Below, piece after piece: positions 1 through 43,452 of a DNA stretch of 45,915 nucleotides. How positions within the stretch are numbered: position 1 is the first letter of the stretch; the number at the start of each line of letters is the position of its first letter. Where the stretch lies: the IMG/VR virus record IMGVR_UViG_3300012668_000094, positions 1 through 45,915 of that record; one strand, written 5' to 3'. Both the position numbers and the translations under genes were made by a program. The notes below the pieces were generated by a model. The model searched no databases. It was given only the letters and a program-made list of their open reading frames with translations, and was not told the origin of the DNA. This DNA is from a virus.

Positions 1-77
1 AGACCCCCGATGGTGCCGACCCAGAAGATCTGCCATCTGAGGCCCTTGCGCGTTGTGTGTGAGGATTGCACCCACTC
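1..77. repeat. 77-bp terminal overlap identical to 45839..45915 (circular closure of the contig)
   Basis: Read directly: nt 1-77 and 45839-45915 are identical while the adjoining bases differ. Unique genome = 45,838 bp. Confidence 0.95.
58..70 (+). promoter_or_regulatory. copy of the 13-nt promoter-like motif (TGTGAGGATTGCA), antisense to the lysis-type genes
   Basis: Fits TGn + -10-like hexamer + TGCA consensus. Same bases as 45896..45908. Confidence 0.4.
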
Positions 78-614: not shown

Positions 615-2515
615 TACGCACTCACCGTTCGGAGTTGCAGGTAGAGAATTCCACCCTGGTTTCCATCGACCGTCGCATCCCGAGGGGTGCTTTGAATGAA
701 ACGCATTGACTCAATGACAACGGTCTGACCGACATTCAGGGAACTCGTGAAGTCCTGGTAAACCAGAGTCAGGGCATCACTCTCGAGCTGCTGGAGTGCC
801 ATGAGTCGATCCGAGCTGTACCTCGAGCCCCCGTATCGCTGGCCCGAGCGAGCCTGCTCCTCGTCGAAGCACAAGAGGGGCAGGGTGATGAGGCGCTGCG
901 GTGCCACCGCGGGCATCGCCCGGATGAGGTAGGAGTAGACCTTCGGGCCGGTGGTCCCGCCCGAGTGTCTCGTTAGCTCGATACGCAGTGATGCGTAGCG
1001 CATCGGGGCGCTGGCCCAACCCAGGGTGTCAGTGAGGATCTCCCCCTGGAGGGTCATGCTGCCGATGCTCTCGAGGGTGCCGCCCTCGCGGACACCCTGA
1101 ATGACCAGCGAGCCGGCCAGCGGCTCTATGTCCAGGTCGACGAACTTGAAGGCCTTGGGCTCGGTGGTGCGGAACCGGATACGGCTGGTCTGGACATAGC
1201 CGGTCGGCACGAGCTCGGTTGAGCTCTGGTACCACATGCGACCATCGGCGGTGGTGCCGTAGAGCTGGGACCCGATGCTTGCGGCCGAGGTCCAGCTGCT
1301 CACGAATTCGCAGTCAGCGTCCTTGGCGTACGGGAAGGTCCCGTCACCGAAGTCGGTGCTGGTGTCCACCCGGTAGACCAGGGCGTTGCCACCGGTCACA
1401 GCGAACGCGACGACGAAGAAGCGCCCCTGGCTGGTGATCGCCGTGCAGGAGGTCGCACCGGTGGGCTCGATGATGAGGGGCCCGTACTGGATCGAGGAGT
1501 CCTGCTGGACGACGCCGACCCGGAAGCCACGGCTGGTGCCGATGCCGATGTACTGGCCGGCCAGGACTGAGATCTCCTGGACCAGCTCCCCATCGGGGAG
1601 CACTGCGGTCACGGTCGCACCAGAGAGGGCGGGGAGACCCCCGCCCGCGTCGAAGGTGACAGCCTGGATGCTCGAGGAGAAGCCGTCGTGCCCACCGAAG
1701 TACATGGCAGAGGGGCCCTCGGCCATGCAGGTGTAGTTCCACCCGAGGTTGGGGTGGGTGAACTTCGGATCCTGGGACGCGAGGGCAGCCAACGCGAGGT
1801 TGGGCTGCCAGAGCTTGCGACCACCAATGACCCAGAGGCGATGCTTGCCCCATCCGAGCCGGGTCGGGCCGGCGCCGCAGAACCACTTGGTGGCCGTGCC
1901 GGGGGAGGAGATGAGGCCCTGGTATAGCTCACCGTCTGAGGTGACGTCGTAGAACGAGTTACCGGAGATCACTCCATCGACAATGGTGGCTGCCACATCG
2001 TGAAGCAGGACCAGGGCACTGCTCGGGCTGCCATCATTGGTGCTTTTGTAGAGGTTGCCGTTGGCCACCACCGACAGGCCTGCGGCACCGGAGACGGTGT
2101 AGTTCCTCATCCGGGTGTAGGTGCCGACAGGGCCCGTCAAGAGCACCATACGCTTGAGCAGGGAGAGCTCGCCCTGCTCGAACATGTTGACACCGCTGGA
2201 GTCCCAGAAGCCATTATGGGCGTCATCGCTACTGGGTTCGTACAGGAAGCCGGCGCCCTGGTGGAAGGAGCTCTGGCTCCGACGCCACCACCCGGACAGG
2301 CTCTGCTCCCCTGGGTCCTTCTCGGTGTCGAACTGCTCCTTGCGGAGGGGGATTGTCTCAATACTCTGGGGCAGCTCGGCAGAGGTGGCCAGCATGAACG
2401 GAATGCCACCAATGGCCACGTCAACCTCACGCCCCAGGCGGGAGTAGATCGCCTGGGACGCAGAGGACAGTCGCTCAGAGAGCGGTAGTGGGAGTCGGTC
2501 GGGGAAGTCAGCCAT
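614..2515 (-). CDS. large tail/nozzle-associated virion protein (633 aa)
   Basis: Uninterrupted ORF in the tail part of the late operon, overlapping neighbours at both ends. Beta-rich Gly/Ser/Thr composition. No specific motif recognised. Confidence 0.5.
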   Translation of the reverse strand: MADFPDRLPLPLSERLSSASQAIYSRLGREVDVAIGGIPFMLATSAELPQSIETIPLRKEQFDTEKDPGEQSLSGWWRRSQSSFHQGAGFLYEPSSDDAHNGFWDSSGVNMFEQGELSLLKRMVLLTGPVGTYTRMRNYTVSGAAGLSVVANGNLYKSTNDGSPSSALVLLHDVAATIVDGVISGNSFYDVTSDGELYQGLISSPGTATKWFCGAGPTRLGWGKHRLWVIGGRKLWQPNLALAALASQDPKFTHPNLGWNYTCMAEGPSAMYFGGHDGFSSSIQAVTFDAGGGLPALSGATVTAVLPDGELVQEISVLAGQYIGIGTSRGFRVGVVQQDSSIQYGPLIIEPTGATSCTAITSQGRFFVVAFAVTGGNALVYRVDTSTDFGDGTFPYAKDADCEFVSSWTSAASIGSQLYGTTADGRMWYQSSTELVPTGYVQTSRIRFRTTEPKAFKFVDLDIEPLAGSLVIQGVREGGTLESIGSMTLQGEILTDTLGWASAPMRYASLRIELTRHSGGTTGPKVYSYLIRAMPAVAPQRLITLPLLCFDEEQARSGQRYGGSRYSSDRLMALQQLESDALTLVYQDFTSSLNVGQTVVIESMRFIQSTPRDATVDGNQGGILYLQLRTVSA

Positions 2516-3411
2516 CAGGCGGTTCGCTTGAACATGTAGCAGGTGATGTAGGGCTGGAGGTTATTGTGTGCGGCGCCGCCACCCGTGTTCTGGTTTGTTG
2601 CGGTTGCCGGGTTGTTCGTTGCGGTTGTTGCGGTGACCAGGGAGTTGTTACTCGTACCGATCACGCCTGAGCCCGCCGCGGGCGCAACCGTGGTGATCGG
2701 ATCACCCAGTACCTGCTGGTGCTGGTGCGGGTTTTGCGTGTGGTTGTGGGCATCCTGGACGTGCGTGTGAGATGGCATCTCGGCAACGGTCAGGGTGTGG
2801 GTCTTGGCTCCGCCGATCTCCTCAGCGGTATCGAACTCCACCTGCGCGGCATCAACACCAACTGGCACGCGACCAGATCCCCAGGCCACCCAGGTTCCAC
2901 CGAGATAGGTGCCGGGGTTGACGTTGGTTGCACACATCTTGATGTCACCGACCGGGTGGGCGGCAAGGAGCGCCGCCTTCACGAAGGCCGTGGTCGCCAA
3001 GGCGGTAGTGCTATCCGTCGTGACAGGAGTCGTCGCGGTCTTATTGGTCAGCATCTGGGTGTCCGTGGTGCCGACCACGGAGCCGACGACACCATGGACG
3101 TTTGCCGAGGCGTTGACGTGAGCATTGGGCTCACGAACATCCTGGGCCGTAATGCCGTGGACAACTGAGGCGCCGGCCGAGTGCGCGAACGCCGTGGTGC
3201 CGTCGATCCCTCGAGTGACCGTCAGGGTCGTGCCGGCCGCGGCCGTCACGGAGACGGCCTCTTCCGTCGCCGTACCCCGGTCGATGATGAGGGTGTACGG
3301 GTAGGAGATCGGCAGGCCGGTCACCGACGTCATCACAATGGCCGTGGCGAGGGCCGTGCAGCTGTTGGCGAGTGTGGACGCCGCTGCATTGGCGTATTGC
3401 CTTACTGGCAT
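2515..3411 (-). CDS. tail fibre protein with phage-tail-collar-like C-terminal domain
   Basis: 298 aa. C-terminal ...GGAKTHTLTVAEMPSHTH...GGGAAHNNLQPYITCYMFKRTA resembles the collar/MdpB-type fibre tip. Thr/Ala-rich shaft. Confidence 0.7.
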   Translation of the reverse strand: MPVRQYANAAASTLANSCTALATAIVMTSVTGLPISYPYTLIIDRGTATEEAVSVTAAAGTTLTVTRGIDGTTAFAHSAGASVVHGITAQDVREPNAHVNASANVHGVVGSVVGTTDTQMLTNKTATTPVTTDSTTALATTAFVKAALLAAHPVGDIKMCATNVNPGTYLGGTWVAWGSGRVPVGVDAAQVEFDTAEEIGGAKTHTLTVAEMPSHTHVQDAHNHTQNPHQHQQVLGDPITTVAPAAGSGVIGTSNNSLVTATTATNNPATATNQNTGGGAAHNNLQPYITCYMFKRTA

Positions 3412-6705: not shown

Positions 6706-7059
6706 TCAAGCCGGCTGGGTGAACTGGAAGCCCAGGCCGGCTACGTCGGCATAGGCCTCCAGGCCGAGGTTCTTCAAGGTGCCAGCCGCCGTGATGACAA
6801 CATCGGTACCGGGGTCAACCTTGACCCAAAGGGGGGCTTTCTTCTTGTTGGGCAGGAGCGCCCATGCGGGGACGTTGCCCGTGTTGCGGGTACGGAGGTA
6901 CGACACCGGCCCATTGCAGTCGGGGCGCACCGACACCCCGTCCCAGCCATAACGGCAGTCGATGAGCACCGATCCCGAGAAGTTGGGTAGGGGTGTCTCC
7001 AGGGTGACGCTGTTGTAAGCGTCACCCCGAGAAGCCGGATCACAGGTCCCAATAGGCAT
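6706..7059 (-). CDS. hypothetical virion protein (117 aa)
   Basis: TGATG overlap with the upstream gene. Late operon position. Confidence 0.5.
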   Translation of the reverse strand: MPIGTCDPASRGDAYNSVTLETPLPNFSGSVLIDCRYGWDGVSVRPDCNGPVSYLRTRNTGNVPAWALLPNKKKAPLWVKVDPGTDVVITAAGTLKNLGLEAYADVAGLGFQFTQPA

Positions 7060-7607
7060 CAGAGGCTGCCGGTCTCACCAGACACGGCGATGGTCACACC
7101 GTCGTTGGATAGAGCGGCAGTGTTCGCCGCGGTGCGGCGGACCCAGATGGCACGACAGGAGCCGGCCGCGATGTTGCCCAGGGCGAGGCCGGTGCCGACC
7201 GTGGTCGGGGACGAGAAGGCCGACGTGCCCACCGGAGCGGTCGTCTCGTTTGCAACCTCAGCCGCTTGTGCGGCAGTTGCACCAATGGCAGACGCGGCCA
7301 CGTTGTCCGTGGCGATGGCGATGGACGCCCCGCCCGCGGTCTCGGCGGAGAGGTAGACGACCACGTTCTCGTACACGTTGGCCGCGTTCGAGTTGTGGAT
7401 GAAGATGCAGCGGTAGTCGACGGTACTCGCAGCATTCTCCGCGCCCGACACGTCGTCGAAGAGGTCATTGAGGGCTCCACCGGCCCAGGCCGTGGTGGAG
7501 ATGTACTTGCCGAGGGAGCCAGCTGCGGTGCCCACGGTCGAGTTGCCGGCCGTGCCGGTCTTGACGCTGTACTTGTACAGCACTTCGGCTGAGGTAATGG
7601 CAGCCAT
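7059..7607 (-). CDS. virion structural protein (182 aa)
   Basis: ATG 7607 with AGGAG RBS; the longer track ORF is unsupported. Ala/Thr/Gly-rich, ...DYRCIFIHNSN...AIWVRR... Confidence 0.55.
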   Translation of the reverse strand: MAAITSAEVLYKYSVKTGTAGNSTVGTAAGSLGKYISTTAWAGGALNDLFDDVSGAENAASTVDYRCIFIHNSNAANVYENVVVYLSAETAGGASIAIATDNVAASAIGATAAQAAEVANETTAPVGTSAFSSPTTVGTGLALGNIAAGSCRAIWVRRTAANTAALSNDGVTIAVSGETGSL

Positions 7608-7625
7608 GGTCGCTCCTGTGTTATG

Positions 7626-7638
7626 TGTTAGGATTGCA
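7626..7638 (+). promoter_or_regulatory. extended -10 promoter-like motif TGTTAGGATTGCA
   Basis: TGnTAGGAT is a good actinobacterial extended -10. It sits 7-8 nt upstream of the tRNA-like element. Confidence 0.55.
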
Positions 7639-7641
7639 GCA

Positions 7642-7805
7642 TCGGTAGTTGGTGTAGTGGCCGCGTGGGCTTCGTGCCTGTAGCGGCGGCGTGCCAGCAC
7701 ATCGCCCGCGGGTCGTCCGGACGCTCGCCGCGGGGACTTACTGCTGGAGGCTGAGCACACGGGCAGCGGCGCCCGAGGGCCGGTTCGATCCCGGACTACC
7801 GACCA
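7642..7805 (+). ncRNA. tRNA-like structured RNA (acceptor + T arm + CCA, with oversized core)
   Basis: TCGGTAGT (7642-49) pairs with ACTACCGA (7795-7802). T arm CCGG/TTCGATC/CCGG (7780-94), CCA at 7803-05, D-loop-like GGTGTAGTGG. About 125 nt lie where about 45 are expected. Confidence 0.5.
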
Positions 7806-7810
7806 GGACC

Positions 7811-7836
7811 CGAGGGCCCCCGCGAGGGGGCCCTCG
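7811..7836. terminator. 10-bp GC hairpin after the capsid gene / tRNA-like element
   Basis: CGAGGGCCCC-N6-GGGGCCCTCG. No clear U tail on either strand (I-shaped actinobacterial type, or attenuator). Confidence 0.5.
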
Positions 7837-7854
7837 AGCCTTAGATCACGACGA

Positions 7855-8808
7855 TCAGAGAACGTCGATGCTGGAGACCGTCTCCACGCGCCAGAGAGCT
7901 TCCTGGCGGTAGATGGACCAGCCGGCGATGCCGTGCCACGACAGCGGACGGAACCGCATCATCGTGTCCGTGACCGGGCCGATGATGAGGTGCGGCTCGA
8001 CAGCCACGACCTCGGCCAGACACTGCGAGCCGAACAGGTAGGACCTGTAGACCTGCTTCGCGGTCGCACCCGTCGCGGACGTCTTGCAGCGAGGGGACTC
8101 GATGTACGAGACACCGCCGAAGACGCCGACCTGCTCCATCCAGAGGTTGTTCGGAGCGACGTTGTTGTGCGGGTAGCGCCAGCCCAGCTCGCCCGTCTCA
8201 CGACGGAGGTCGTACGCCACGTCGGGGTGGATGAAAGCACCGAAAGTGTTTCCGCCCATCTTCTCGATGACGTTCGCGCCGCGCATCTTGGCGACGACAG
8301 CCTGGGGGATCTGGCTCTTGAAGACGTCGCCCGTGGTGAGCGTCACCTCTGTCTTGGTGGTGCTGGCGACGCCCGCGTTGGAGCGGACGACCTGGGTGCC
8401 GGCGTCCAGCACGTTGCGGACACGGAGGTCCACCGACTCTGCCTGACTCCGGGCGACAAGGTTCGCCACCGCGGGGTCGATGTCTGCGAACGTGAACGTC
8501 CGCAGTCGCAGCGTCGGGATGACCGTCTGACCCATTTCGTTCAGGGTCACGGTCACCGTGCTGGTGGAAGGCACCGCTTCCTCGCCGGGGTTCGTGGCCT
8601 CGGCAAGGTTGGTGGTGTTGGGGGTGAGGTCGTTGTACAGGTTGAACACGACCGTCTCACCGGGGTTGGTGAGAGCTGTTGCTCGGGTGTCCGCCACTCG
8701 ACGGAAAAGGGGCTCGGACCGGAGCTTGAAGCCGACGAGCTTCTCGTAACCGGTCTTGACCAGATTGAGGCCGAGTGAGGTACCCGAAGTGATGTCAGTG
8801 GTAGGCAC
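7855..8808 (-). CDS. major capsid protein (HK97-fold type, inferred)
   Basis: 317 aa directly after the acidic scaffold ORF. GTG start with TAAGGAG RBS. Followed by a strong hairpin. Sequence recalls actinophage capsid proteins (from memory only). Confidence 0.75.
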   Translation of the reverse strand: MPTTDITSGTSLGLNLVKTGYEKLVGFKLRSEPLFRRVADTRATALTNPGETVVFNLYNDLTPNTTNLAEATNPGEEAVPSTSTVTVTLNEMGQTVIPTLRLRTFTFADIDPAVANLVARSQAESVDLRVRNVLDAGTQVVRSNAGVASTTKTEVTLTTGDVFKSQIPQAVVAKMRGANVIEKMGGNTFGAFIHPDVAYDLRRETGELGWRYPHNNVAPNNLWMEQVGVFGGVSYIESPRCKTSATGATAKQVYRSYLFGSQCLAEVVAVEPHLIIGPVTDTMMRFRPLSWHGIAGWSIYRQEALWRVETVSSIDVL

Positions 8809-9440: not shown

Positions 9441-9447
9441 GAAACTG

Positions 9448-9460
9448 TGGTATGGTTGCA
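9448..9460 (+). promoter_or_regulatory. extended -10 promoter-like motif TGGTATGGTTGCA
   Basis: TGnTATGGT + TGCA, pointing away from the late genes into a terminator-bounded segment. Confidence 0.5.
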
Positions 9461-9462
9461 TC

Positions 9463-9750
9463 AACGGGAAAGCGACGGCTGACCCGGAGTGTGGCTGAAC
9501 GTCTGGTACTGCTGGATCGACCGGACAAGGCTCATGCGGTGTGCAGGACCCTCTAGGCCGATTCGGTGAAGGGGGGCATGAGGACTAGCAATCCGATTGG
9601 CATACACCTTGCGGTGAACGCATGGACGGCTATAGGAGTACCTCAAACCCGAGAAAACTCCAGCTAGGCCGTGGTGGTAAAGACCAATCCACCCACTCAC
9701 ACAGACCCCCGTTAGCTGGGCCTTGGCCCTCAGCGGGGGTCTTGTGTTAT
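9463..9750 (+). ncRNA. ~285-nt putative non-coding RNA antisense to the late operon
   Basis: Bounded by the motif at 9448 and an intrinsic terminator (GACCCCCG 9704-11 / CGGGGGTC 9734-41 + TTGTGTT). Lower GC and no credible ORF. Confidence 0.5.
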
Positions 9751-9757
9751 GGTTGCT
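9745..9757 (+). promoter_or_regulatory. promoter-like motif TGTTATGGTTGCT
   Basis: Immediately after the terminator. It would drive an RNA antisense to the 21-aa ORF. Confidence 0.35.
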
Positions 9758-9803
9758 ACTGGCGCAGAGGGCCGGGGATCGACCCCCCGGTCCTCTCGCT
9801 ACG

Positions 9804-9869
9804 TCACCGGAAGGCGATGACGGCCAGGAGTACGACGGCGATGATCGCCAGGACTAGAATGGGGTCCAT
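9804..9869 (-). CDS. 21-aa hydrophobic peptide MDPILVLAIIAVVLLAVIAFR
   Basis: ATG 9869 preceded by GAGAGGAG RBS. Followed by an 11-bp hairpin (9767-9795). Not in the ORF track because it is too short. Confidence 0.45.
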   Translation of the reverse strand: MDPILVLAIIAVVLLAVIAFR

Positions 9870-9892
9870 GGTGGTTGGCTCCTCTCGTTATG

Positions 9893-22270: not shown

Positions 22271-22396
22271 TTATTGGGCCGGCCCGGGCTTCCGATGCCG
22301 GGGCGCGTAGGTGGTGGTGAAGGTGTGGGTGGTCGACTGGATGAAGCCGCGGCCACAAGAAGGGCAGATCGGGCCGTTCCAGGTGTAGGGGTACAT
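22271..22396 (-). CDS. 41-aa CPSC-containing small protein
   Basis: ATG shares one base with the portal stop (TGATG). Hand translation: MYPYTWNGPICPSCGRGFIQ... Not in the track. Confidence 0.4.
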   Translation of the reverse strand: MYPYTWNGPICPSCGRGFIQSTTHTFTTTYAPRHRKPGPAQ

Positions 22397-24195
22397 CAGG
22401 CGGGGATCCTTCTCGAGACGTTCGCCTGGAGGTTGGCGTTACCGCCCGGAGTGAGGCCGGCCAGCACCATCGAGATATCAGGTGCGGCGCCGGCGCCCAT
22501 GAAGGCGTTGTCTCCAGGCTGTTCGGTGGGAGCGGGGCCTCCCCCGCCCAGCTGTTGCATCAGCTGGGCCATGGGGTCGTTGGCCGCGGCTGCCGGCTGC
22601 TCCTCGGGCATGAAGGCCTCGAGGACCGCCTCGTGGAACGGCTTGCCGCTCTCCCGGTCCCTGATGATCTGCGCGGCCCGCTGGAGGGTCTGGAGGGGGT
22701 CGACCCCCTGCTGACTCATCACCGGGGCGTTGGCGAGCAGGGCGAACATGCCCTGCTTCATCGCGTCGGTCATCTGCTCGATATCGACTCGACGCTGGAG
22801 GTCTTCCACGTCGACGTCGAACGGCAACATCCGCTGCATGGTGTCGCGGTCGATGGCCTGATCTGCTCGCAGCTGGAGCAGGAACACGATGGCCCGGTTG
22901 GGGTCCATGCCGGCCGTCATGCCGTACGTCACGGAGACGGAGTAGTCGCCCTTGATGTCCTTCGCCGGCGTGTAGGTCTCGGTGAAGGGCGCGCCGCTGG
23001 CGACGCCGCGGACGGTCTTGCGGACCTCGGGCCAGTAGAGCTCGTCCATCTCGAACGCGATCTCGACGGCTCTACGGAGACAGTCCCCCACCACGTCCTG
23101 CGCGGTGGCGATCTGAGTGGAGTACCACTCGGTCAGGGCCTCCACGCCCTTGCCCGTGATGACCGAGGCCTTCACGTCCCCGCGGCGTGCCGCGGGTGAC
23201 CGGGTACCGTCCGCAATCTCCTTGTCCAGGAGCTGCGACTCGATCAGAGAAGACTGGGGCAGCTCGATGGGTACGCGCCGAACCTTGTCGGGACTGTTCG
23301 TGCGAATAATCGCATCGGCGCCAAAACTGATCTGAGTCACATCGTCAGGCACGGCGAGCGGAGCTCGCACTGCCTTGTCCGCGGCCTCCAACCCGTACAC
23401 GGCCATGCGTGCGCGGGCGAGCCAGACCCAGATCACATCATCGAACTGCCCTCGCTGCTGCTCATCCCACCGCGGTCGCTCAGCGACCACAATTGGGGGA
23501 CGCTTGAAGCGATGTTCAAGCCTACGGAGCACCAGCCCCTCCCGCTCGGGGAGGAAGAGGATGATTGAGTTGTTCACGTACATCTGGGCGACGTCGAGCT
23601 TGGTGTCGCCCGCCTCGCCCTTGCCCCAGGCTGTGTCGCTGCGCCCGATGTACTCGGCCACCTCGGGGAATTTCGCACTCAGCGACTCGATGGTGTCCTG
23701 CCACACCTTGCAGTACAGGGTGACGTTGCCATAGAAGTCGGTCTGCCAGAAGGCGGTACGGGGGTCGTCGATGCGGAACCGCGGGCACTGCGCCTCGAAG
23801 TCCGGCTCGATGACGATGGGCATGGCCGCGAAGGACCAGAACCAGTCGCAGCCCGTGTAGAGCTGGAGCTTGAGCCGGCTGTGCTCCACGTAGTAGAGCG
23901 CCACCTTGGTCCGCTTCGAGGAGAAGCGCTTGGCCCGGTCGCTGTTCATCGAGGAGCTGGTGCAGTCGATGGAGGGAAGGCGGGCCAGGGTCTCGGCCAT
24001 GTCTCGAGCCGTCACGTCGACGATGTTGGCGACGACCGGCCGGGGCCAATTCTTCGGGAACATCCCGGGCATGATGGATTCCACGTCACCACGACGCGCA
24101 GCCGCGACATCGCGGTTGCGCTGCTGGCGCTCAGTGGATCCTGAGACCAGCGAGTTGAAGCGACCCATCAGATCGCGCGAGACGTGTTCCATCAC
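22396..24195 (-). CDS. portal protein
   Basis: 599 aa directly downstream of terL with a GTGA overlap. Size and position are typical. No motif-level proof. Confidence 0.7.
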   Translation of the reverse strand: MMEHVSRDLMGRFNSLVSGSTERQQRNRDVAAARRGDVESIMPGMFPKNWPRPVVANIVDVTARDMAETLARLPSIDCTSSSMNSDRAKRFSSKRTKVALYYVEHSRLKLQLYTGCDWFWSFAAMPIVIEPDFEAQCPRFRIDDPRTAFWQTDFYGNVTLYCKVWQDTIESLSAKFPEVAEYIGRSDTAWGKGEAGDTKLDVAQMYVNNSIILFLPEREGLVLRRLEHRFKRPPIVVAERPRWDEQQRGQFDDVIWVWLARARMAVYGLEAADKAVRAPLAVPDDVTQISFGADAIIRTNSPDKVRRVPIELPQSSLIESQLLDKEIADGTRSPAARRGDVKASVITGKGVEALTEWYSTQIATAQDVVGDCLRRAVEIAFEMDELYWPEVRKTVRGVASGAPFTETYTPAKDIKGDYSVSVTYGMTAGMDPNRAIVFLLQLRADQAIDRDTMQRMLPFDVDVEDLQRRVDIEQMTDAMKQGMFALLANAPVMSQQGVDPLQTLQRAAQIIRDRESGKPFHEAVLEAFMPEEQPAAAANDPMAQLMQQLGGGGPAPTEQPGDNAFMGAGAAPDISMVLAGLTPGGNANLQANVSRRIPA

Positions 24196-26096
24196 ATGGC
24201 CTGTCGTTGATGCTGGAGGTACTCGTCGATGTTGATGACCACCCGGTCGGCAAGGTCGTTATCGGAGGCGAATGGGTTCTCGAGGAAGTCCTGCTTCCGG
24301 TTACCCAGGTGCTTGACGACCGCGCGAGCGGCGGTCTCTGCGAACCAGAGGGCCATCACGGTGTCGATCTTCTGGGTCTTCGGGTGCTCGGGGTACCACG
24401 TCACCAGCTGTGCCTTGAGGGTGCGGAAGGCCTCGTTGGGATTCATGCCAGGGAGGTCGAGCAGGGCGTGGCCGTCCTGATGTCCGCGGAGCAGATTCTC
24501 GAGCGAGGAGACACCCCACTCGGGGTCATTCTTGTTGTTGTTGGTGCTGTGCTCGTCGAGACGGACACCTCTCGAGGCCAAGAATTGGTTGATCTCCCGG
24601 TCCTGGGTGAGGAATGCCTGGAAGGCGTTCTTCTCAATTCGCCAGATGTCGATGTCGTACTTCTCGGTCCAGTCCATGATGAGCTCACGAAGCCCACTGG
24701 CACGGACCTGCTTGTTGAAGACGTCAACGAGGTAACGCTTCCCGGTGTCACGGTCGACAGCGAGTACCACGCAGGCGGTGAAGCCTGCTGACGTGGCCGG
24801 GTCTAGGCCGGCGACGACGGTCATGTTGCGGAGGGTGGGAACCTGTCCGCGCCAACGGCTGCCGTCCTGGCAGCTGTTGAGAGCTTCGATGGTAAAGAGG
24901 GTCTCCTCGGAGACCGGCTGCTGCATGTAGACCAGGGCCCAGGTGGTCGGCTTGAGCTTGCGGCGCAGCTTCGCCAGCCGCGGCCCGTCCCACTTCGGCC
25001 ACAGGCCCTCGGCGTTCGGGGTGCCCGGGCGGGTCGGGTGGGGTCGATCCGCGTACGGCCAGAGCGTGACCCACTTCTCCGGGTCGTCGTCGAAGTCGAA
25101 GACGGCCGGCTGGGACAGGTACGTCCAGTCGGACTCTTCCCCGTCGTAGTGGTCGGGGTTGAGGAGCTCGGAGTAGAGGTCCACCGGTGCCACGCGAGTC
25201 CCCACGACGAGCAGGGGCGCGTCACGGGTCATCACGTCCTGCATGATGTAGTCCAGGTGCGCCTCGTACTGGTGCGCGTTGTTCAGGTCCTGCACGTCGT
25301 CGAGGATGATGAGATCGGCGCGGGCGCCGTAGATCTGCTGACCGATTCCCAGGACCTCGATGTTCGGGTCCTTCTGGTCGGAGTCGGTGTTGCCGAAGTA
25401 GATCATGTTGGCAGTCCAGACCTCGGCTGCCTTCTCGAAGCCCTCGGCCGGCCCGTAGTCGATCTGGAGCTTGGCGAACGCCTTGTTGGTCAGCCGGCGC
25501 TTGATGCCGGCGAGGAACTTCTTCGCCATCCGCTCGGTCTTGGAAATGATGACCACGCGGAACTCGGGGTTGGTGACGATCTTGTACGTCACGTAGTCCA
25601 TCGTGATCGTGGTGCTCTTCGCGTGGCCGGGTGGAGTGTTGATGATCACCGTGTCCGGGTCGCCCAGCTTGTAGACCTGGGCCGGGTGCAGGTTGCGAGG
25701 CTCCCGACCCTCGATGAGGTCGATCCACTGCATCTGGTGATTGAAGCGCCTGGAGTTGAGGTACTTCTCCGAGAAGTCCTCAAAAGAAATGAATTCGCCG
25801 CGGCGGTCGTATTTAGCACCAGCAATGCGGGCGAGAATGAGATCTGCGGCCTCTTTGAATTCCGCATCGGTTTCCCGGTAATACTTCCAAATGGCCGGCT
25901 GCTTTCCAGCCAGTCGACAGGAATCCTCGACAGTATGGCCGGCCTCCCGCATGGCAAGGATCTTGGCCTTGGTCCGTGCCACCTCTGAACGCTTGGCTGT
26001 CGCCTTGCGTCGAACCTGAGAAGAAGCAAGTCCTGAATTCTGGGCCTCACCGGCGAGCCGGCCATCGCGGCTCGGCGGGTCAAGATGACGGGCCAC
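24192..26096 (-). CDS. terL: terminase large subunit with N-terminal HTH-like extension
   Basis: PPGHAKST (Walker A-like), LIILDDVQD (Walker B), nuclease-type VVAGLDPATS. The first ~95 aa are basic/helical (AKILAMREAGHTVEDSCRLAG). Confidence 0.9.
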   Translation of the reverse strand: MARHLDPPSRDGRLAGEAQNSGLASSQVRRKATAKRSEVARTKAKILAMREAGHTVEDSCRLAGKQPAIWKYYRETDAEFKEAADLILARIAGAKYDRRGEFISFEDFSEKYLNSRRFNHQMQWIDLIEGREPRNLHPAQVYKLGDPDTVIINTPPGHAKSTTITMDYVTYKIVTNPEFRVVIISKTERMAKKFLAGIKRRLTNKAFAKLQIDYGPAEGFEKAAEVWTANMIYFGNTDSDQKDPNIEVLGIGQQIYGARADLIILDDVQDLNNAHQYEAHLDYIMQDVMTRDAPLLVVGTRVAPVDLYSELLNPDHYDGEESDWTYLSQPAVFDFDDDPEKWVTLWPYADRPHPTRPGTPNAEGLWPKWDGPRLAKLRRKLKPTTWALVYMQQPVSEETLFTIEALNSCQDGSRWRGQVPTLRNMTVVAGLDPATSAGFTACVVLAVDRDTGKRYLVDVFNKQVRASGLRELIMDWTEKYDIDIWRIEKNAFQAFLTQDREINQFLASRGVRLDEHSTNNNKNDPEWGVSSLENLLRGHQDGHALLDLPGMNPNEAFRTLKAQLVTWYPEHPKTQKIDTVMALWFAETAARAVVKHLGNRKQDFLENPFASDNDLADRVVINIDEYLQHQRQAM

Positions 26097-28540: not shown

Positions 28541-28553
28541 TGCAAGCCTGACA
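28541..28553 (-). promoter_or_regulatory. promoter-like motif TGTCAGGCTTGCA driving the acidic cassette
   Basis: Minus-strand copy ~60 nt upstream of ATG 28478. Confidence 0.55.
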
Positions 28554-28685
28554 CAACCCCATGGCACATCTTCGTTACCAAACCGTGACCCATGTCTAGA
28601 CCAGCCTCGAGATCGGCGTCGAGCGGCGCGCCGCGGGGCGACGGCCCTCGCGCGCGCGCGGGGGGTGGGGGAGGAGGCGCAACGG

Positions 28686-28715: not shown

Positions 28716-28784
28716 CACATGGTGGAGCCCATGGTCAACCACCGTTACCAAGTCGTGACCTTTGACCGGGAATGGTCTACCATG

Positions 28785-28797
28785 TGTCATGGTTGCA
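28785..28797 (+). promoter_or_regulatory. promoter-like motif TGTCATGGTTGCA driving the early plus-strand operon
   Basis: About 110 nt upstream of ATG 28906. Confidence 0.55.
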
Positions 28798-30917: not shown

Positions 30918-31108
30918 GTCGAGGCAAAAGCCGCCAGCGCTGGCACTGCCGCGCTTGCGAAAAGACGGCCTTCGGGTCCGAGCACCGAGCGATAGACACG
31001 ATGGTCACACTCCGTGACCAGTCCACTCGTGACGTAGTACCAATCCGCGCCTACCCTTGTCCCTATGGCAATGGGTGGCACCTGACCAAGCAAAAGGAAC
31101 GTGTATGA
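30914..31108 (+). CDS. zinc-ribbon protein (64 aa)
   Basis: GTGA overlap. WHCRAC...YPCPYGNGWHLT. Confidence 0.5.
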   Translation: MSRGKSRQRWHCRACEKTAFGSEHRAIDTMVTLRDQSTRDVVPIRAYPCPYGNGWHLTKQKERV

Positions 31109-31524
31109 CCCAGTTGTATCTCAATCCATACCGCCCCGAGATGGGCGATGCGAGGCCGCTCCGCAAGCTGGCTCGCAACTACCGTGCGACCTACCACCAG
31201 TACCAGAGTCCGCGGGAGCTCCAGACTGCCACGGCCACCGGCCGATGGGTCGGGGTCGAGTCCCGGCTTCCGGGGTCGAAGTCGGCTCACGAGGTCGACT
31301 GGGTTGGACTGATGGATGAGTTCTACGCCCGCACAGACGGCCTGCACATCGTCGTCGGCAGCATGAACCACGGTCTGCCGGGTGACGTGCTCGAGATGAT
31401 GGACTACCTCGTGTACGTCCCTCAATTCGACGACGTGCCCTTCCTGGCGCCGGCCACAGCCGCGGCCATCGTCCTCGATCAGATCTTTGCGACGGTCGCC
31501 AACCGGTCAGGGGTGTTTGGATGA
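31105..31524 (+). CDS. SPOUT (SpoU/TrmH-like) methyltransferase-fold protein, divergent
   Basis: 139 aa. LHIVVGSMNHGLPGDVLEMMDYLVYVP...APATAAAIVLDQI resembles SpoU motifs 2-3. ATGA overlap. Confidence 0.45.
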   Translation: MTQLYLNPYRPEMGDARPLRKLARNYRATYHQYQSPRELQTATATGRWVGVESRLPGSKSAHEVDWVGLMDEFYARTDGLHIVVGSMNHGLPGDVLEMMDYLVYVPQFDDVPFLAPATAAAIVLDQIFATVANRSGVFG

Positions 31525-32669: not shown

Positions 32670-32905
32670 CGAAGGTTCAGCACACCGCACGCCTCCACGA
32701 GGAGAGCGTGCAGAAGATCGCTCAAGGTCGACCTGCCTTCGATTTTCGTGGCCGACCCCTGCAACAACGCCACGCAACCAGCAAGTGGTCCGTGACCGTG
32801 TTTCCGCTCGTGATGGAAACAGCACGCCGGCTCCAGCGACCCGGCACAACCATCCGCATCATCAACGAGGGCGAAGTCCTCATCATCAACAAGGAGAATA
32901 GATAG
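32666..32905 (+). CDS. hypothetical protein (79 aa)
   Basis: GTGA overlap. Confidence 0.45.
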   Translation: MTKVQHTARLHEESVQKIAQGRPAFDFRGRPLQQRHATSKWSVTVFPLVMETARRLQRPGTTIRIINEGEVLIINKENR

Positions 32906-33207
32906 TGGCTCAGAAGATCAGCGTCGTCCTGGTGGACGACCTCGATGGCAGTGAGGCTCACGAGACCGTGAGCTTCGGTCTCGATGGGGCAACCTACGAG
33001 ATCGACCTCAACAAGGCCAACGCCCAGGACCTCCGGATCGGACTGGCGCCCTTCCAGGCTGTCGCCCGAGTGACATCCAAGGCACCGAAGTCCGGCCCAT
33101 CCAAGACGCGCCTCGTGCGCGAGTGGGCCCGAGAGATCGGCCTGGACGTATCGAGCCGTGGAACCATCCCGGCCGAGATCGTGCAGCAGTATGAGGCTGC
33201 TCACTAG
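32905..33207 (+). CDS. lsr2: Lsr2-family nucleoid-associated protein (xenogeneic-silencer type)
   Basis: N-terminal KISVVLVDDLDGSEAHETVSFGLDGATYEIDL. C-terminal REWAREIGLDVSSRGTIPAEIVQQYEAA matches the Lsr2 dimerisation and RGR-type DNA-binding regions. Confidence 0.85.
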   Translation: MAQKISVVLVDDLDGSEAHETVSFGLDGATYEIDLNKANAQDLRIGLAPFQAVARVTSKAPKSGPSKTRLVREWAREIGLDVSSRGTIPAEIVQQYEAAH

Positions 33208-36935: not shown

Positions 36936-37078
36936 GGCCTATCCCTCCGGATCCACCACAGCCACTCGGCGTGCTCCCACGCCTTCTCCCAGGTATCGAA
37001 GGCGGTGGAGTCCCACCAATCGCCGTGGTCCATCAGGGCTACCCAGTAGCCCCCGTCCTTGAAGACCGCGGCCTTCAC
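36932..37078 (-). CDS. 48-aa Trp-rich small protein
   Basis: GTGA overlaps at both ends. Hand translation: VKAAVFKDGGYWVALMDHGDWWDSTAFDTWEKAWEHAEWLWWIRRDRP. Confidence 0.45.
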   Translation of the reverse strand: MKAAVFKDGGYWVALMDHGDWWDSTAFDTWEKAWEHAEWLWWIRRDRP

Positions 37079-37416
37079 GGCTTGAACCGGTCGTCATAGT
37101 CAGGGTGCTCACGCATGAAGGCGAGCATCGCCAGACAGTGCCAAGCAGCGTGAGCCAAGTGGGGCAGGCCGGACTCCTCGTCGAGGTCCTCTCCTGACCA
37201 GAACAGCATCAGGTGTCGCTGGCAGGCGTCGAAGGACAGCGACCAGGGGTACCCCCGCATGTAGTTGAGGCGGTCGTACTTCTCCTCACCGAAGCCGGCC
37301 ACCCTCGCCACATCCAAGATGGCCTGGGGGTCGATGGATCCCAGACGCGCCCGCTTGGCACCCTTGGATCCACCAGTCTCGGAGGTCACGACGACCCCGA
37401 TCTCATGCCCACTCAT
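37075..37416 (-). CDS. DUF5664-like (dATP/dGTP diphosphohydrolase N-terminal-like) protein
   Basis: 113 aa. GGSKGAKRARLGSIDPQAILDVARVAGFGEEKY...RHLMLFWSGEDLDEESGLPHLAHAAWHCLAML. Confidence 0.5.
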   Translation of the reverse strand: MSGHEIGVVVTSETGGSKGAKRARLGSIDPQAILDVARVAGFGEEKYDRLNYMRGYPWSLSFDACQRHLMLFWSGEDLDEESGLPHLAHAAWHCLAMLAFMREHPDYDDRFKP

Positions 37417-37547
37417 CGCCGCTCGCTCTTGCGAGCTCGACGGGCCCGGTCCAGGTCGAGCAGGGTGGGCCGGACCTTGGTGTTGTCCTCGCACCACTTC
37501 TCGATGGTCTTGCAGGATCCGAAGAGCACCCTCTTGGGCATCTCCAT
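37413..37547 (-). CDS. 44-aa basic small protein
   Basis: Its stop overlaps the downstream ATG (ATGA). Weak RBS. Confidence 0.35.
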   Translation of the reverse strand: MEMPKRVLFGSCKTIEKWCEDNTKVRPTLLDLDRARRARKSERR

Positions 37548-41358: not shown

Positions 41359-42233
41359 TGCTTGTCTCCTTCGTTGTGTGTCAGGGTTGCATCTGGTTTA
41401 CGAAAAAATGGGGTCCCGCCCATCGCAACGCAAAAACGCGCCACGCCGCAGGCGCTCTTGCAGAGGTTCCCGGGGACGGCCAGGAAGAGCTGCTGGTCTC
41501 TGATCTCACGGGCCTTCCAGGCCTGCTCCCACAGCCACTCCTCGGTGAAGACACTGAGGTCGAACCACTCAGGCACTCCCCCGCTACGGGCCTTCCAGAA
41601 GCCAGCCCACCGGGGCTGCACCTCGAAGGTGCCGAGCACTCCCAGGGCGTTGTACGCCATCTGGCGGGGCCATGCGTCGGTGTGGCTGCCGGTCTTGAGG
41701 TCGACGATGTAGAGCTCGCCGGCGTCGTTGACGTACACCCGGTCGATAATGGAGCGGATCTGGAGGTCCTCCGGGCCATAGGCCCAGACCTCAACCTCGA
41801 CGGCCGGCTTGAGCTCGCCGTCCTCGTCGGGGTACTCCCAGATCTTGAGGCCGCAGTTGTCTCGCCACATGATCCACTGCTTGATGAACTCGGGGCCCTT
41901 GAGGGACCACCACTCAGGGGTCTCCTTCTCGGGCCAGTCCTTGCTGGCGCGACCGGAGCGGTAATACTCGGACGGCTCGTACTGGGGACTGCGCTCCACG
42001 GCCTCGTCGTAGCACTCCTGCCAGACGATGGACCAGAGCTCGTTGATCCCTCGCTCGTCACCCAGGTCGATCATCTCGGTGACCCTGTGGACGGTGCTGC
42101 CACCGATCCCGGCCCACATGGGCCGTTCGGGAGCACCTTCGACACGAGTCAGGCGGTACTGCTCACCACAGGTAGTGAGGCTCGAGATCTGCGACGGGCT
42201 GAGGTAGGTCGGCGGGATCCAGTCGGGGTTCAC
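41355..42233 (-). CDS. Cas4/RecB-like PD-(D/E)xK exonuclease with Cys cluster
   Basis: ...SPSQISSLTTCGEQY..., ...IVDLKTGS..., ...QMAYNALG..., C-terminal CKSACGVARFC. Start moved to GTG 42233 (GTGA overlap). Confidence 0.65.
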   Translation of the reverse strand: MNPDWIPPTYLSPSQISSLTTCGEQYRLTRVEGAPERPMWAGIGGSTVHRVTEMIDLGDERGINELWSIVWQECYDEAVERSPQYEPSEYYRSGRASKDWPEKETPEWWSLKGPEFIKQWIMWRDNCGLKIWEYPDEDGELKPAVEVEVWAYGPEDLQIRSIIDRVYVNDAGELYIVDLKTGSHTDAWPRQMAYNALGVLGTFEVQPRWAGFWKARSGGVPEWFDLSVFTEEWLWEQAWKAREIRDQQLFLAVPGNLCKSACGVARFCVAMGGTPFFRKPDATLTHNEGDKQ

Positions 42234-42846: not shown

Positions 42847-42859
42847 TGCAACCCTGACG
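42847..42859 (-). promoter_or_regulatory. promoter-like motif CGTCAGGGTTGCA
   Basis: Minus-strand copy 11 nt after the regulator stop codon. Confidence 0.45.
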
Positions 42860-42869
42860 CAAGCCCTCT

Positions 42870-43313: not shown

Positions 43314-43452
43314 GCAACACAGTGTGGCGCAACTGTGGCACTTAGTCAAATCCACAACCAACCCGAGGGGTGGTTGCACCCGCCCTACTCGCCCCTCCGT
43401 CGCAGGTCAGGATCAGGGGTTTCGTAGGACACGACGCTGCTGGGTGCTGTTG

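Follow-up and report, generated by a model that had tools for sequence, protein, structure and literature searches.

Genomic setting of the element

The stretch of DNA analysed here, called the window, comprises the 45,915 nt of IMG/VR virus record IMGVR_UViG_3300012668_000094 and belongs to a temperate, actinobacterial, podovirus-like phage. Portal and terminase were assigned using PHROGs, a tyrosine integrase is encoded at 44405–45433, approximately 8 kb from the element described below on the circular map, and no TROVE/Ro60 protein was found in the large ORFs scanned with Pfam. The late gene downstream of the capsid gene encodes 182 aa on the minus strand (7059–7607) and, because its ATG lies at 7607, the intergenic gap between the two genes spans 247 nt (7608–7854). 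This gap holds, on the plus strand, a tRNA-like unit preceded by a promoter-like motif and followed by a GC-rich hairpin (Table 1). A plus-strand ORF running across the element (7691–7912) was considered as coding sequence and rejected for failing the GC3 criterion used for this genome. Elsewhere in the window, a match to a SpoU-type methyltransferase at 31057–31524, checked in PDB and NCBIfam, was too weak to be connected with the RNA.

Two assemblies, a JGI contig and Logan ERR4837109, agree fully on the sequence of the element; their samples are perhaps not independent. Because both assemblies carry the identical sequence, the element is probably not an assembly artefact. The only other contig found to contain the element is an identical genome.

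Table 1. Positions of the element's parts and of associated signals in the window
Feature	Position	Strand	Description
Extended −10 promoter-like motif TGTGTTAGGATTGCA	7624–7638	+	TG at 7626–7627; −10 hexamer TAGGAT at 7629–7634
tRNA-like unit	7642/3–7805	+	About 164 nt; acceptor stem, U8, D arm, T arm and ACCA present
Acceptor-like stem, 5' strand TCGGTAGT	7642–7649	+	Perfect 8-bp complement of 7795–7802; acceptor placed here by ARAGORN intron mode
U8 and G9	7650–7651	+	U8 is T7650; D arm follows
D arm	7652–7666	+	Stem GUGU 7652–7655/GCGU 7663–7666; 7-nt loop AGUGGCC 7656–7662 with A14 and G18G19; read from the sequence
Long GC-rich arm	7667–7774	+	108 nt in the anticodon-arm position; predicted single irregular hairpin closed by GGGC/GCCC (constrained fold)
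Variable-loop-like linker GAGGG	7775–7779	+	5 nt (constrained fold)
T arm CCGG-TTCGATC-CCGG	7780–7794	+	4-bp stem; loop with T54, T55, C56, R57 and A58, flanked by G53 and C61
Acceptor-like stem, 3' strand ACTACCGA	7795–7802	+	Followed by CCA at 7803–7805
GC-rich hairpin	7811–7836	.	11-bp stem, GCGA loop; directly past the capsid stop codon
Motif copy	9446–9460	+	Precedes a manA-like RNA by 7 nt; runs antisense to the late genes

Acceptor stem, D arm and T arm of the tRNA-like unit

The two acceptor-like strands can be paired in two registers. In the first, C7643 is position 1 and seven base pairs are followed by A73 and an encoded CCA (7802–7805); this 7-bp register is the one matching real tRNAs of the TTGGTGTAG type, and within it the acceptor/T stack amounts to 11 bp, not 12. 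In the second, the '8/4' form, T7642–A7802 contributes an eighth pair and C7803 takes the place of the discriminator. Where a tRNA has a 7-bp acceptor stem and a free 3' NCCA, the element thus offers eight perfect pairs, A73 and CCA. The pair at 3:70 is G3–C70.

The U8 and a D arm carrying A14 and G18G19, as required of a tRNA, are both in place. The D arm opens with TGGTGTAGTGG, the usual 5' D-arm word in phage tRNA-Gly, tRNA-Glu, tRNA-Gln, tRNA-Trp and tRNA-Asp genes, and its stem consists of one Watson–Crick pair and three G·U pairs; with three of the four stem pairs being G·U, the D stem is confined to the plus strand. Positions 24 and 25 of this stem differ from those of typical phage tRNAs by transitions that retain pairing as G·U, and A21 and the 15–48 Levitt pair are non-canonical. 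The linker preceding the T arm has the length of the variable loop in class I tRNAs. The T loop and G53–C61 are canonical, whereas the T stem has 4 bp against the 5 bp of tRNA because G7779 and A7795 are unpaired. Two T-arm-like motifs occur in the window and only the copy at 7780–7794 is preceded by G53. Its sequence, GCCGGTTCGATCCCGG, recurs without change as the T arm of tRNA-Gly(UCC) from Streptomyces phage Manuel, and the D and T frame of the element as a whole is nearest to phage tRNA-Gly(UCC) and least like tRNA-Ser. The T loop, the CCA and the G·U pairs in the D stem have meaning on the plus strand only.

A long arm in the position of the anticodon arm

No anticodon arm (5-bp stem, 7-nt loop, U33, R37) is present beside the D stem or the variable loop of the element, and no loop of the interior fits anticodon-loop rules. 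The long arm that occupies this position contains an inner repeat (7705–7711/7728–7734) and an inner hairpin (7760–7764/7771–7775, CGGGC/GCCCG). The features listed in the initial annotation, namely the −10, the paired octamers, the CCA, the T arm, the D-loop-like TTGGTGTAGTGG (7649–7660) and these inner repeats, were all found in the sequence at the coordinates given there, and its description of an oversized core that would not fold as a standard cloverleaf is supported.

Folded alone, the long arm reaches −57 kcal/mol on the plus strand, which is not significant when compared to shuffles (z = −0.89), and −47.4 kcal/mol on the minus strand. The whole element likewise folds no better than shuffles (z = −0.97). 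Between the two strands, the plus strand is favoured by approximately 10–15 kcal/mol. The unconstrained minimum-energy fold, which is rod-like, exceeds the tRNA-like fold in stability by 13.5 kcal/mol. Because neither the element nor its interior can be told apart from shuffled sequences by fold energy, thermodynamics supports neither side. The two halves of the interior, 7660–7726 and 7727–7793, are identical at 34 of 67 positions (51%), a score equalled by 6 of 500 shuffles, and this identity suggests that the interior may have been enlarged by internal duplication.

Detection of the element and expectation by chance

ARAGORN, one of the tRNA finders named as a check in the initial annotation, gave a divided answer. 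It found 0 genes in the window at default settings and was negative in tmRNA mode, while in intron mode its sole call in the window was exactly this interval. Dinucleotide shuffles yielded 61 intron-mode calls in 45.9 Mb, or approximately 0.06 per window, and for this reason the call is weak when taken alone. Rfam, named alongside, brought no family to significance at the element: nothing was found there at gathering thresholds, the tRNA model (RF00005) gave no match at E ≤ 10 even when only the element (177 nt) was searched, and no family, YrlA included, matched the plus strand of the element at E ≤ 10.

A stricter, composite scan required G53-TTCRANN-C61 with at least four stem pairs, followed by a 3' strand for which a 7-mer of perfect complementarity lies no more than 260 nt upstream. 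The element was the only match in the real window, and 46 matches were obtained in 1000 shuffled windows. When either the U8/A14/R15/GG signature or NCCA was added to the composite, none of the 1000 shuffled windows contained a match. The earlier proposal of a tRNA-like unit lying on the plus strand, antisense in the late operon, is supported.

Homologues were sought at several levels of stringency. Neither blastn nor megablast of the region recovered a homologue from 50,697 phage records, and an exact 23-mer from the 3' end was without a match in viral contigs. The D-arm 18-mer had one chance match in viral contigs, and a gapped pattern running from D loop to T loop found only tandem tRNA pairs within phage arrays. 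An 18-mer from the 5' end matched genomes 36 times, with none of the matches called as tRNA by ARAGORN and most of them resembling coding sequence. In the collections scanned, the ends of the element matched no tRNA gene. No homologue on which covariation or conservation could be judged was found in the collections searched.

A repeated promoter-like motif precedes the element

The extended −10 proposed in the initial annotation, TGTTAGGAT, was confirmed at 7626–7634 and gains credibility from its context. The surrounding 7624–7638 is the zero-mismatch copy of a repeated motif, TGTGTnAGGATTGCA, that is found at 11 sites in the window against 0.38 expected. Across the window sites and those of relatives, T−15, G−14, A−11 and T−7 are invariant, and these are the positions expected to matter in an extended −10 promoter. 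In the early intergenic regions at 28.5–28.8 kb and 42.8–43.5 kb, copies of the motif face outward, toward flanking ORFs whose coding is partly resolved. A further copy precedes a manA-like RNA (RF01745, 37.5 bits, E = 3.9e-8) that has a hairpin at its end and that is also matched on the same antisense strand in the relatives L032 (40.6 bits) and L028 (37.4 bits). From this second RNA, placed 7 nt past a motif copy, it follows that the phage group has at least one other RNA of the same layout.

In relatives the motif abuts the ribosome-binding site of the next gene, and it was therefore also considered as a late promoter or leader element of the sense strand. The sense orientation was rejected because the invariant positions are those of an antisense extended −10, and also because the manA-like RNA matches antisense in three genomes. 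Transcription from the motif upstream of the element is predicted to start at approximately 7640–7642. Promoter-like motifs antisense to the structural operon, common to relatives and in one case standing before a manA-like RNA, represent a wider feature of this uncultivated phage group.

Promoter-like motif and hairpin adjoin one another in relatives

A hairpin equivalent to that at 7811–7836 is present in every capsid relative whose contig runs past the capsid stop codon. In the late sense the hairpin is the capsid terminator or stabiliser. In approximately half of the capsid relatives compared the motif directly adjoins this hairpin, and the predicted antisense promoter of the element is common to that share of relatives. 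In L003, L005, L006, L088, L090 and L102, the capsid hairpin is followed after 7–8 nt by the motif, and there is no insert. In the window, hairpin and motif are separated by 164 nt, counted from the first acceptor base to the CCA, with 3–5 nt on each side. The insert is absent from approximately 45 related loci, which hold relatives of the capsid gene or the 182-aa gene and were drawn from IMG/VR, ENA, JGI and Logan.

Because promoter and hairpin adjoin each other in relatives, the tRNA-like unit is an insertion into an antisense promoter–hairpin unit that already existed, both parts of which are older than the element. The hairpin is the only candidate for the 3' boundary of a plus-strand RNA. 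It is without a U tract on either strand, making termination of plus-strand transcripts at this position uncertain. Ordinary tRNA arrays are found in distant relatives, namely Streptomyces phage Manuel, L108 and L109.

A proposed tRNA-derived, non-decoding RNA as the best explanation

Taken together, the element is best explained, tentatively and with a confidence that falls a little short of even, as a tRNA-derived, non-decoding tRNA-like RNA whose insertion separated the capsid terminator hairpin from an antisense extended −10 promoter. Counting against this explanation are the failure to find homologues in the collections searched, the approximately 45 related loci without the insert, the want of a significant Rfam family, the more stable rod-like fold, fold energies at the level of shuffles, the 4-bp T stem with its 11-bp stack in the register of the encoded CCA, the non-canonical A21 and Levitt pair, and a hairpin lacking a U tract. 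The analysis shows the anatomy of the sequence, where the insertion starts and stops, the repetition of the promoter motif and that relatives are without the insert. We infer how such an RNA would be transcribed, folded and processed, and what decoy role it may have. Host sigma-A RNA polymerase would start at approximately 7640–7642, either at the first base of the acceptor stem or 1–2 nt before it. The transcript is predicted to take the fold of the upper half of a tRNA, with the acceptor stem on the T arm and an elbow of D loop and T loop, and the long hairpin would project from the position of the anticodon arm. Its 3' end may be fixed by the hairpin at 7811–7836 or by trimming to the encoded CCA.

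Being without an anticodon loop, the RNA would be unable to decode. It may instead act as a tRNA mimic engaging proteins that read the acceptor, T arm and elbow. Candidate partners include RNase P, 3' trimming enzymes, the CCA-adding enzyme and modification enzymes, and further possible partners are toxins, defence nucleases and transferases aimed at tRNA 3' ends. Alternatively, the element may form a structured module at the 5' end of the antisense transcript predicted from the same promoter in relatives.

A more far-reaching form of this proposal, which we consider speculative and rather improbable, is that the element is the first to be seen of a class of phage RNAs in which only the upper half of a tRNA is retained, in its native connectivity, and a long arm takes the position of the anticodon arm. 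Such RNAs would be expressed antisense in the structural operon, plausibly in the lysogen, and would divert host proteins recognising the acceptor end, in the manner of a decoy or sponge. The targets in this case could be the toxin or defence nucleotidyltransferases, nucleases and acetyltransferases common in Actinobacteria, and a decoy of this kind would leave translation undisturbed because the RNA cannot decode. If expressed, the element would represent another re-use of the tRNA fold by a phage, one that combines normal connectivity and an in-register promoter-like motif with the lack of an anticodon, and would offer a simple, testable candidate decoy.

Alternative explanations

The main rival reading is that the element is a neutral relic, a dead tRNA gene or fragment that came from the arrays of related phages, recombined into a dispensable spot and was internally duplicated, with any transcription being incidental. 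We hold this to be unlikely, although it has the most in its favour after the RNA proposed above. The restriction of the element to one genome among the approximately 45 related loci, the many tRNA genes of the wider lineage, the likeness of the two interior halves, the missing anticodon arm, the short T stem, the several non-canonical tertiary positions and an interior that folds at the level of shuffles all speak for this reading, and the promoter–hairpin site may simply tolerate neutral insertions. Against it stand the parts that have remained intact: all eight acceptor pairs, U8, A14, G18G19, G53, T54, T55, C56, A58, C61 and ACCA, together with D-stem changes at 24 and 25 that preserve G·U pairing. 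Furthermore, the insert has exactly the ends of a mature tRNA and lies in register with a perfect-consensus promoter, and it differs in site and is opposite in orientation to the tRNA arrays of relatives. Should the element be only a relic, it would nonetheless illustrate cleanly an insertion of tRNA origin that begins and ends where a mature tRNA does.

It is quite improbable that the functional strand is the minus (sense) strand, where the sequence would give the 182-aa gene a structured 5' leader or the late mRNA a processing site, and that the resemblance to tRNA is incidental. The late mRNA necessarily contains the reverse complement of the element, the whole 247-nt gap folds on this strand with z = −2.16, a figure in which the capsid hairpin is included, and weak Rfam matches to Scr6925 (17.3 bits) and Actino-pnp (12.7 bits) were obtained there. 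Both of these matches have E > 1, however, and the element itself folds worse on the minus strand than on the plus strand, with z = +0.13 for its interior. The plus-strand meaning of the T loop, the D-arm G·U pairs and the CCA would be left without an account, and the relatives of both flanking genes do without such a leader.

A small mobile hairpin element of the MITE type that had entered the genome behind the capsid gene, with TCGGTAGT/ACTACCGA as its 8-bp terminal inverted repeats, would account for the rod-like minimum-energy fold and for the presence of the element in this genome only, at a site that is empty in relatives. This is very unlikely, as the element is a single copy in the genome, its junctions are without a target-site duplication, and exact seeds recovered no copies from viral, genome or metagenome collections. 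Shuffled sequences fold as well as the rod does, and the T loop, D loop, U8 and CCA are left unexplained.

The option of an interrupted tRNA, raised in the initial annotation, fared poorly and has only a slight chance of being correct. The model returned by ARAGORN intron mode at its default threshold is a decoding tRNA-Ser(GCU) with a 68-nt intron at 32/33, and a truncated match to tRNA-Sec was obtained over the 3' part of the element, weak at 12.1 bits and E = 3. When every possible single segment was deleted, ARAGORN called 108 tRNAs at a threshold of 100%, 15 at 105% and 0 at 110%, compared to 14–611, 2–195 and 0–39 calls, respectively, in controls with shuffled interiors. No single-segment deletion is thus better than shuffled interiors at restoring a tRNA, from which it follows that the 'tRNA-Ser plus 68-nt intron' of ARAGORN is arbitrary. 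The modelled anticodon stem contains two G·U pairs, 32/33 is not a known intron site, and the variable arm is full of mismatches. Known tRNA introns of bacteria and phages are group I introns of approximately 200 nt or more, whereas the insert here would be approximately 90 nt at most and no intron family was found by Rfam. Nor does the identity fit, with a D and T frame least like that of tRNA-Ser and a discriminator that is not G73.

Finally, the suggestion, named in the initial annotation as a route to refutation, that the 3' segment is merely an attP core copied from the 3' end of a host tRNA gene, for which the tyrosine integrase of the phage and the integration of many actinobacterial elements into tRNA genes could be cited, is hardly credible: compared with host tRNA genes, the 3' 20-mer GTTCGATCCCGGACTACCGA matched none, being absent from the genomes of 185,579 species (one genome each) and having in metagenome contigs two matches, both by chance and in unrelated sequence, while the 5' 18-mer matches no tRNA gene, the element lies inside the structural module at its distance from the integrase, a matching 5' acceptor strand and D arm would be needless, and relatives with the same integrase position are without the element.

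Comparison with known systems

Ordinary tRNAs, tmRNAs and mimics of the Y RNA type are all known from phages, and the part that tRNAs play in the contest with tRNA-targeting defence is an active field. The YrlA-type Y RNAs are tRNA mimics of bacteria and phages that are bound by Ro60/Rsr, and YrlA of M. smegmatis is cut by RNase P and has CCA added (Chen et al. 2014, PMC4201824). Like YrlA, which is known in Actinobacteria and phages, the non-decoding element proposed here would join a tRNA-like domain of acceptor, D and T parts to a long helix. The topology is permuted, however: YrlA ends in the long helix and its acceptor is closed by a loop, whereas in the element the acceptor holds the ends and the long helix is closed. 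On reading the element no GNCGAA(N)G motif was seen. Identity with YrlA or another Y RNA was rejected on this opposite topology, the lack of a TROVE (rsr) match in the ORFs scanned, and the lack of an Rfam match at E ≤ 10 on the plus strand.

With the tRNA-like domain of tmRNA the element shares ends that pair as an acceptor beside a T arm with CCA, and a long helix in place of the anticodon arm. It differs in having G3–C70 rather than G3:U70, a full D stem and a length of 164 nt, and in having no pseudoknots and no credible tag reading frame. A tmRNA was rejected given that ARAGORN tmRNA mode and Rfam were negative at normal thresholds; lowering the ARAGORN threshold to 80% produced implausible models only, with the tRNA-like domain drawn from other sequence.

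The register with an 8-bp acceptor and a 4-bp T stem, a 12-bp stack, resembles the (8/4) tRNAs of bacteria and phages, and the weak truncated similarity to tRNA-Sec recalls the allo-tRNAs. The latter are decoding tRNAs of approximately 90 nt that possess a genuine anticodon arm, a long V arm and a long D stem capped by a tetraloop (Mukai et al. 2017, PMC5389517). Identity with either was rejected, as the D arm of the element is of class I type, an anticodon arm is lacking and the V arm amounts to a weak CGGGC/GCCCG option.

Also among the closest known systems are ordinary phage tRNA genes, for example those in the arrays of L108, L109 and Streptomyces phage Manuel (Beephvirinae), the last of which counts 19 genes. 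The host phylum is the same, and the capsid lineage is related with 43% identity. These tRNA genes measure approximately 70–90 nt, are arranged in arrays in the sense direction upstream of the scaffold gene, and are not overlooked by default ARAGORN and the Rfam tRNA model as the element is; the latter, at 164 nt, has a 4-bp T stem and no anticodon stem-loop, and is a single gene that follows the capsid gene and runs against the late operon. Common to both are the acceptor stem, U8, a D arm opening with TGGTGTAGTGG, the T arm GCCGGTTCGATCCCGG and the CCA end.

In the TMERs of MHV68 and the mascRNA of MALAT1, a tRNA-like fold that takes no part in decoding gives tRNA-processing enzymes a handle on a longer non-coding transcript. 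Those systems are eukaryotic and involve RNA polymerase III or RNase Z, and their hairpins follow the tRNA-like part, whereas in the element the hairpin would replace the anticodon arm.

Genome context

The contig, obtained from JGI sample 3300011199, is complete, has a GC content of ~64%, and was assembled as a circle of 45,915 bp, as shown by a 77-nt direct repeat at both ends (1–77 and 45839–45915). An identical genome was found in Logan ERR4837109. Among cultured phages, Streptomyces podoviruses such as Manuel are nearest, with a capsid identity of just 43%, and the Lsr2-like gene points to an actinobacterial host. The tRNA-like element is located in a 247-nt gap that separates the stop codon of the capsid gene (7855) from the ATG (7607) of a 182-aa late gene. 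Elsewhere, Pfam gave a signature of an RNA methyltransferase of the SpoU/TrmJ type at 31057–31524 (+), but it is very weak (E = 1.4e-4, below cutoff).

Coordinates of features in the window and in related loci
Feature	Locus	Coordinates	Strand	Remark
Acceptor-like stem	window	7642–7649/7795–7802	plus	
D arm	window	7650–7666	plus	
Long arm	window	7667–7774	plus	108-nt hairpin
T arm	window	7780–7794	plus	
CCA	window	7803–7805	plus	
Capsid hairpin	window	7811–7836		
manA-like RNA	window	9468–9703	plus	236 nt; 37.5 bits
manA-like RNA	L032	1112–1347	minus	40.6 bits
manA-like RNA	L028	1088–1324	minus	37.4 bits
Hairpin	window	9704–9743		
Motif copies	window	56–70 (= 45894–45908), 7624–7638, 9446–9460, 9743–9757, 28783–28797, 41377–41391, 43451–43465	plus	
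Motif copies	window	28541–28555, 42847–42861	minus	
Terminase	window	24192–26096	minus	late gene
Portal	window	22396–24195	minus	late gene
Virion protein, 2407 aa	window		minus	late gene
N4-gp56-type major capsid protein	window	7855–8808	minus	late gene
Tail genes	window		minus	late genes
Lsr2-like nucleoid protein	window	32905–33207	plus	
dATP/dGTP diphosphohydrolase N-terminal domain	window	37075–37497	minus	
Tyrosine integrase	window	44405–45433	plus	convergent with late-operon end
tRNA array	L094 (Manuel)	988–2853		43% capsid identity
tRNA array	L108	408–868		43% capsid identity
tRNA array	L109	17–867		43% capsid identity

Anatomy and tRNA likeness of the element

Re-reading of the sequence located every motif that the initial annotation had listed, each at its given coordinates. 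The T stem consists of 4 bp, and the loop AGUGGCC is enclosed by a D stem, GUGU/GCGU, in which three pairs are G.U. Two registers are allowed, either 7 bp with A73 and an encoded CCA, or an 8/4 form. With the acceptor, D and T arms imposed, the remainder folds as a single hairpin followed by a 5-nt variable-type linker, and the modelled structure is a cloverleaf with a long arm replacing the anticodon arm. This constrained fold has an energy of -70.1 kcal/mol versus -83.6 kcal/mol for an unconstrained rod, and the stability of the long arm is not above that of shuffles (z = -0.89). The two consecutive 67-nt halves of the interior (7660–7726 and 7727–7793) are identical at 34/67 positions (51%), with a global alignment score of 10 against -1.35 ± 4.0 in shuffles, 6 of 500 of which scored equally or better. 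This identity hints that the oversized core may derive from an old internal tandem duplication.

The 10-mer CCCGAGGGCC occurs twice, at the junction of the variable loop and T stem (7772–7781) and in the 5’ arm of the capsid hairpin (7809–7818). Given this repeat, the 3’ arm of the capsid hairpin (7829–7839) could in principle pair instead with 7771–7781, breaking both the T arm and the hairpin. The repeat may be due to chance, with ~0.6 such repeats expected, or may mark an alternative structure.

Among the detectors named in the initial annotation, ARAGORN at default settings and Rfam were negative on the element. ARAGORN in intron mode called exactly 7642–7804 (+) and nothing else in the window, a call that is weak by itself given a false-positive rate of ~0.06 per window. 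A composite scan, which required a T arm and, within 260 nt, a perfect 7-bp acceptor, had the element as its single match in the real window and gave 46 matches in 1000 shuffled windows. When either U8/A14/R15/GG or NCCA was added, the element was again the sole real match and no match was found in the 1000 shuffled windows. The tRNA likeness is therefore not due to chance, the probability of which we consider negligible.

Promoter-like motif and insertion site

The extended -10 proposed upstream of the element proved to be a zero-mismatch copy of a repeated motif, TGTGTnAGGATTGCA, for which 11 matches with up to 3 mismatches were found in the window versus 0.38 expected. Across the sites in the window and in relatives, T-15, G-14, A-11, T-7 and a following TGC are invariant, the pattern expected of extended -10 promoters recognised by actinobacterial sigma-A. 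Five copies oppose minus-strand genes: the early region has one (41377), and the other four lie inside the late operon or at its end. This orientation suggests that the structural module would be systematically transcribed antisense. One copy is directed at the 3’ terminus of the final late gene, and has an equivalent in the relative L090 (position 19908, minus strand). The early intergenic copies (28541/28783 and 42847/43451) form outward-facing pairs directed toward the flanking ORFs, coding in the 28–31 kb region being partly resolved.

Capsid relatives were compared at ~25 loci of 59–92% identity and two of 43%, using contigs that extend past the capsid stop. In all of these, a GC-rich hairpin comes after the capsid stop, then a short spacer and the ribosome-binding site of the next gene, which varies between loci; ~55–130 nt separate the capsid stop from the start of that gene. 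About half carry the motif beside the capsid terminator hairpin, where it also directly adjoins the ribosome-binding site of the next gene. In the spacers of the related loci L003, L005, L006, L088, L090 and L102 the motif is aimed at the capsid hairpin from 7–8 nt away, and its product would be a very short hairpin RNA or a capsid-antisense RNA. In the window, a stretch of 164 nt that runs from the acceptor's first base through CCA fits exactly between motif and hairpin. No element-like sequence was present upstream of the relatives of the 182-aa gene (46–92% identity, ~20 loci). Because relatives possess motif and hairpin without the insert, both are probably older than it. The insert is a discrete unit with ends that coincide with mature-tRNA-like ends; its anatomy, boundaries and promoter family are directly observed.

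A second putative structured RNA, antisense to the late operon

The scaffold-like gene is preceded by a conserved gap without coding sequence, in which a match to manA RNA (RF01745; E = 3.9e-8 in a small search) lies between a motif copy and a hairpin. The match begins 7 nt after the motif copy and ends at the hairpin. Matches were also found in the relatives L032 and L028; none of the three reaches the gathering score of 55.2. Conservation of the region is high, and in each genome the RNA lies on the same strand, antisense to the late genes. In marine cyanophages and gamma-proteobacteria, manA RNAs have been described as elements of 5’ UTRs; in these actinobacterial phages the manA-like RNA has the appearance of a stand-alone gene. 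The layout of motif, structured RNA and hairpin antisense to the late operon thus occurs a second time, and conserved, among these phages, which supports transcription of the tRNA-like unit from a predicted start at ~7640–7642, at or 1–2 nt before its first base.

A probable 23-aa hydrophobic mini-ORF, MDPILVLAIIAVVLLAVIAFR (9799–9870, minus), with a ribosome-binding site is located in the stretch that separates the manA-like region from the upstream late gene and that aligns poorly in relatives.

The gap preceding the scaffold and capsid genes, which houses the manA-like RNA in the window and its close relatives, is occupied in distant relatives (Manuel, L108 and L109) by sense-oriented arrays of 3 to 19 ordinary tRNA genes. 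This position seems to be an RNA-gene hotspot, and the arrays make a tRNA-derived origin within the phage lineage plausible. Homologues of the element were absent from phage records by blastn. Exact seeds from the 3’ end, 5’ end and D arm gave only chance matches in viral contigs and the genomes of 185,579 species, as did the 3’ end in metagenome contigs, and a gapped D-to-T pattern matched only tandem tRNA pairs in phage arrays. The element is so far known from a single genome.

Interpretation and alternatives

The sequence observation of the initial annotation was confirmed and its interpretation partly supported, the interrupted tRNA and the att core being the options without support. We tentatively favour a tRNA-derived, non-decoding tRNA-like RNA, expressed from the pre-existing antisense promoter and acting as a tRNA mimic or a structured 5’ module. 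Its transcription, fold, processing and target are inferred. The RNA would mimic a tRNA toward proteins that recognise the acceptor, T arm or elbow; alternatively, it would form the structured 5’ module of the antisense transcript predicted in relatives from the same promoter.

The main rival, less probable in our view, is a neutral tRNA-gene relic that grew by duplication and is tolerated at a dispensable site. The uniqueness of the element, its missing anticodon arm and its unremarkable fold energy fit such a relic, whereas its intact invariant positions, D-stem changes that preserve wobble pairing and exact register with a perfect promoter speak against one.

A minus-strand leader element is improbable. 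The strand of the element is plus, since the T loop, CCA and G.U-rich D stem are found only there and the plus strand folds 10–15 kcal/mol better. On the minus strand, Rfam gave a weak match to Actino-pnp RNA (7779–7807; 12.7 bits, E = 1.7–4.8) in which the consensus words UCGGUAGU and GAUCGAA are reproduced exactly. The reverse complements of these two words form the acceptor 3’ strand and the T loop; the match was judged to be chance. A MITE-like element is rated lower still.

The suggestion of an interrupted tRNA was addressed by removing every possible single interior segment and running ARAGORN on each product, with 12 shuffled interiors as control. The real interior gave 108, 15 and 0 calls at thresholds of 100%, 105% and 110%, compared with 14–611, 2–195 and 0–39 for shuffled interiors. 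No deletion outperformed the shuffles and no hidden anticodon arm was found; the acceptor/D/T frame is so good that nearly any filler gives a ‘tRNA’. The tRNA-Ser(GCU) with a 68-nt intron at position 32/33 called by ARAGORN is for these reasons arbitrary, and the D/T frame is most like phage tRNA-Gly(UCC) and least like tRNA-Ser. An intron-containing tRNA is accordingly very unlikely. An att core, the other alternative named initially, is the slimmest of these prospects because no tRNA gene in the collections scanned has the acceptor sequences and the integrase is 8 kb away.

Comparison with known systems

The element belongs to no Rfam family. Its 8/4 register is similar to that of allo-tRNAs, but these are decoding tRNAs. 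In how it would work, the element comes closest to the tRNA-like domains of YrlA Y RNAs and tmRNA, in which the upper half of a tRNA is likewise combined with a long helix. It does not pass the tests that define either kind: its topology is the opposite of that of YrlA Y RNAs, with no Ro60 gene or Rfam match found, and the G3:U70 pair, tag reading frame and pseudoknots of tmRNA are missing. The element would represent the phage and bacterial tRNA-mimic kind in a variant form, so far in one genome.
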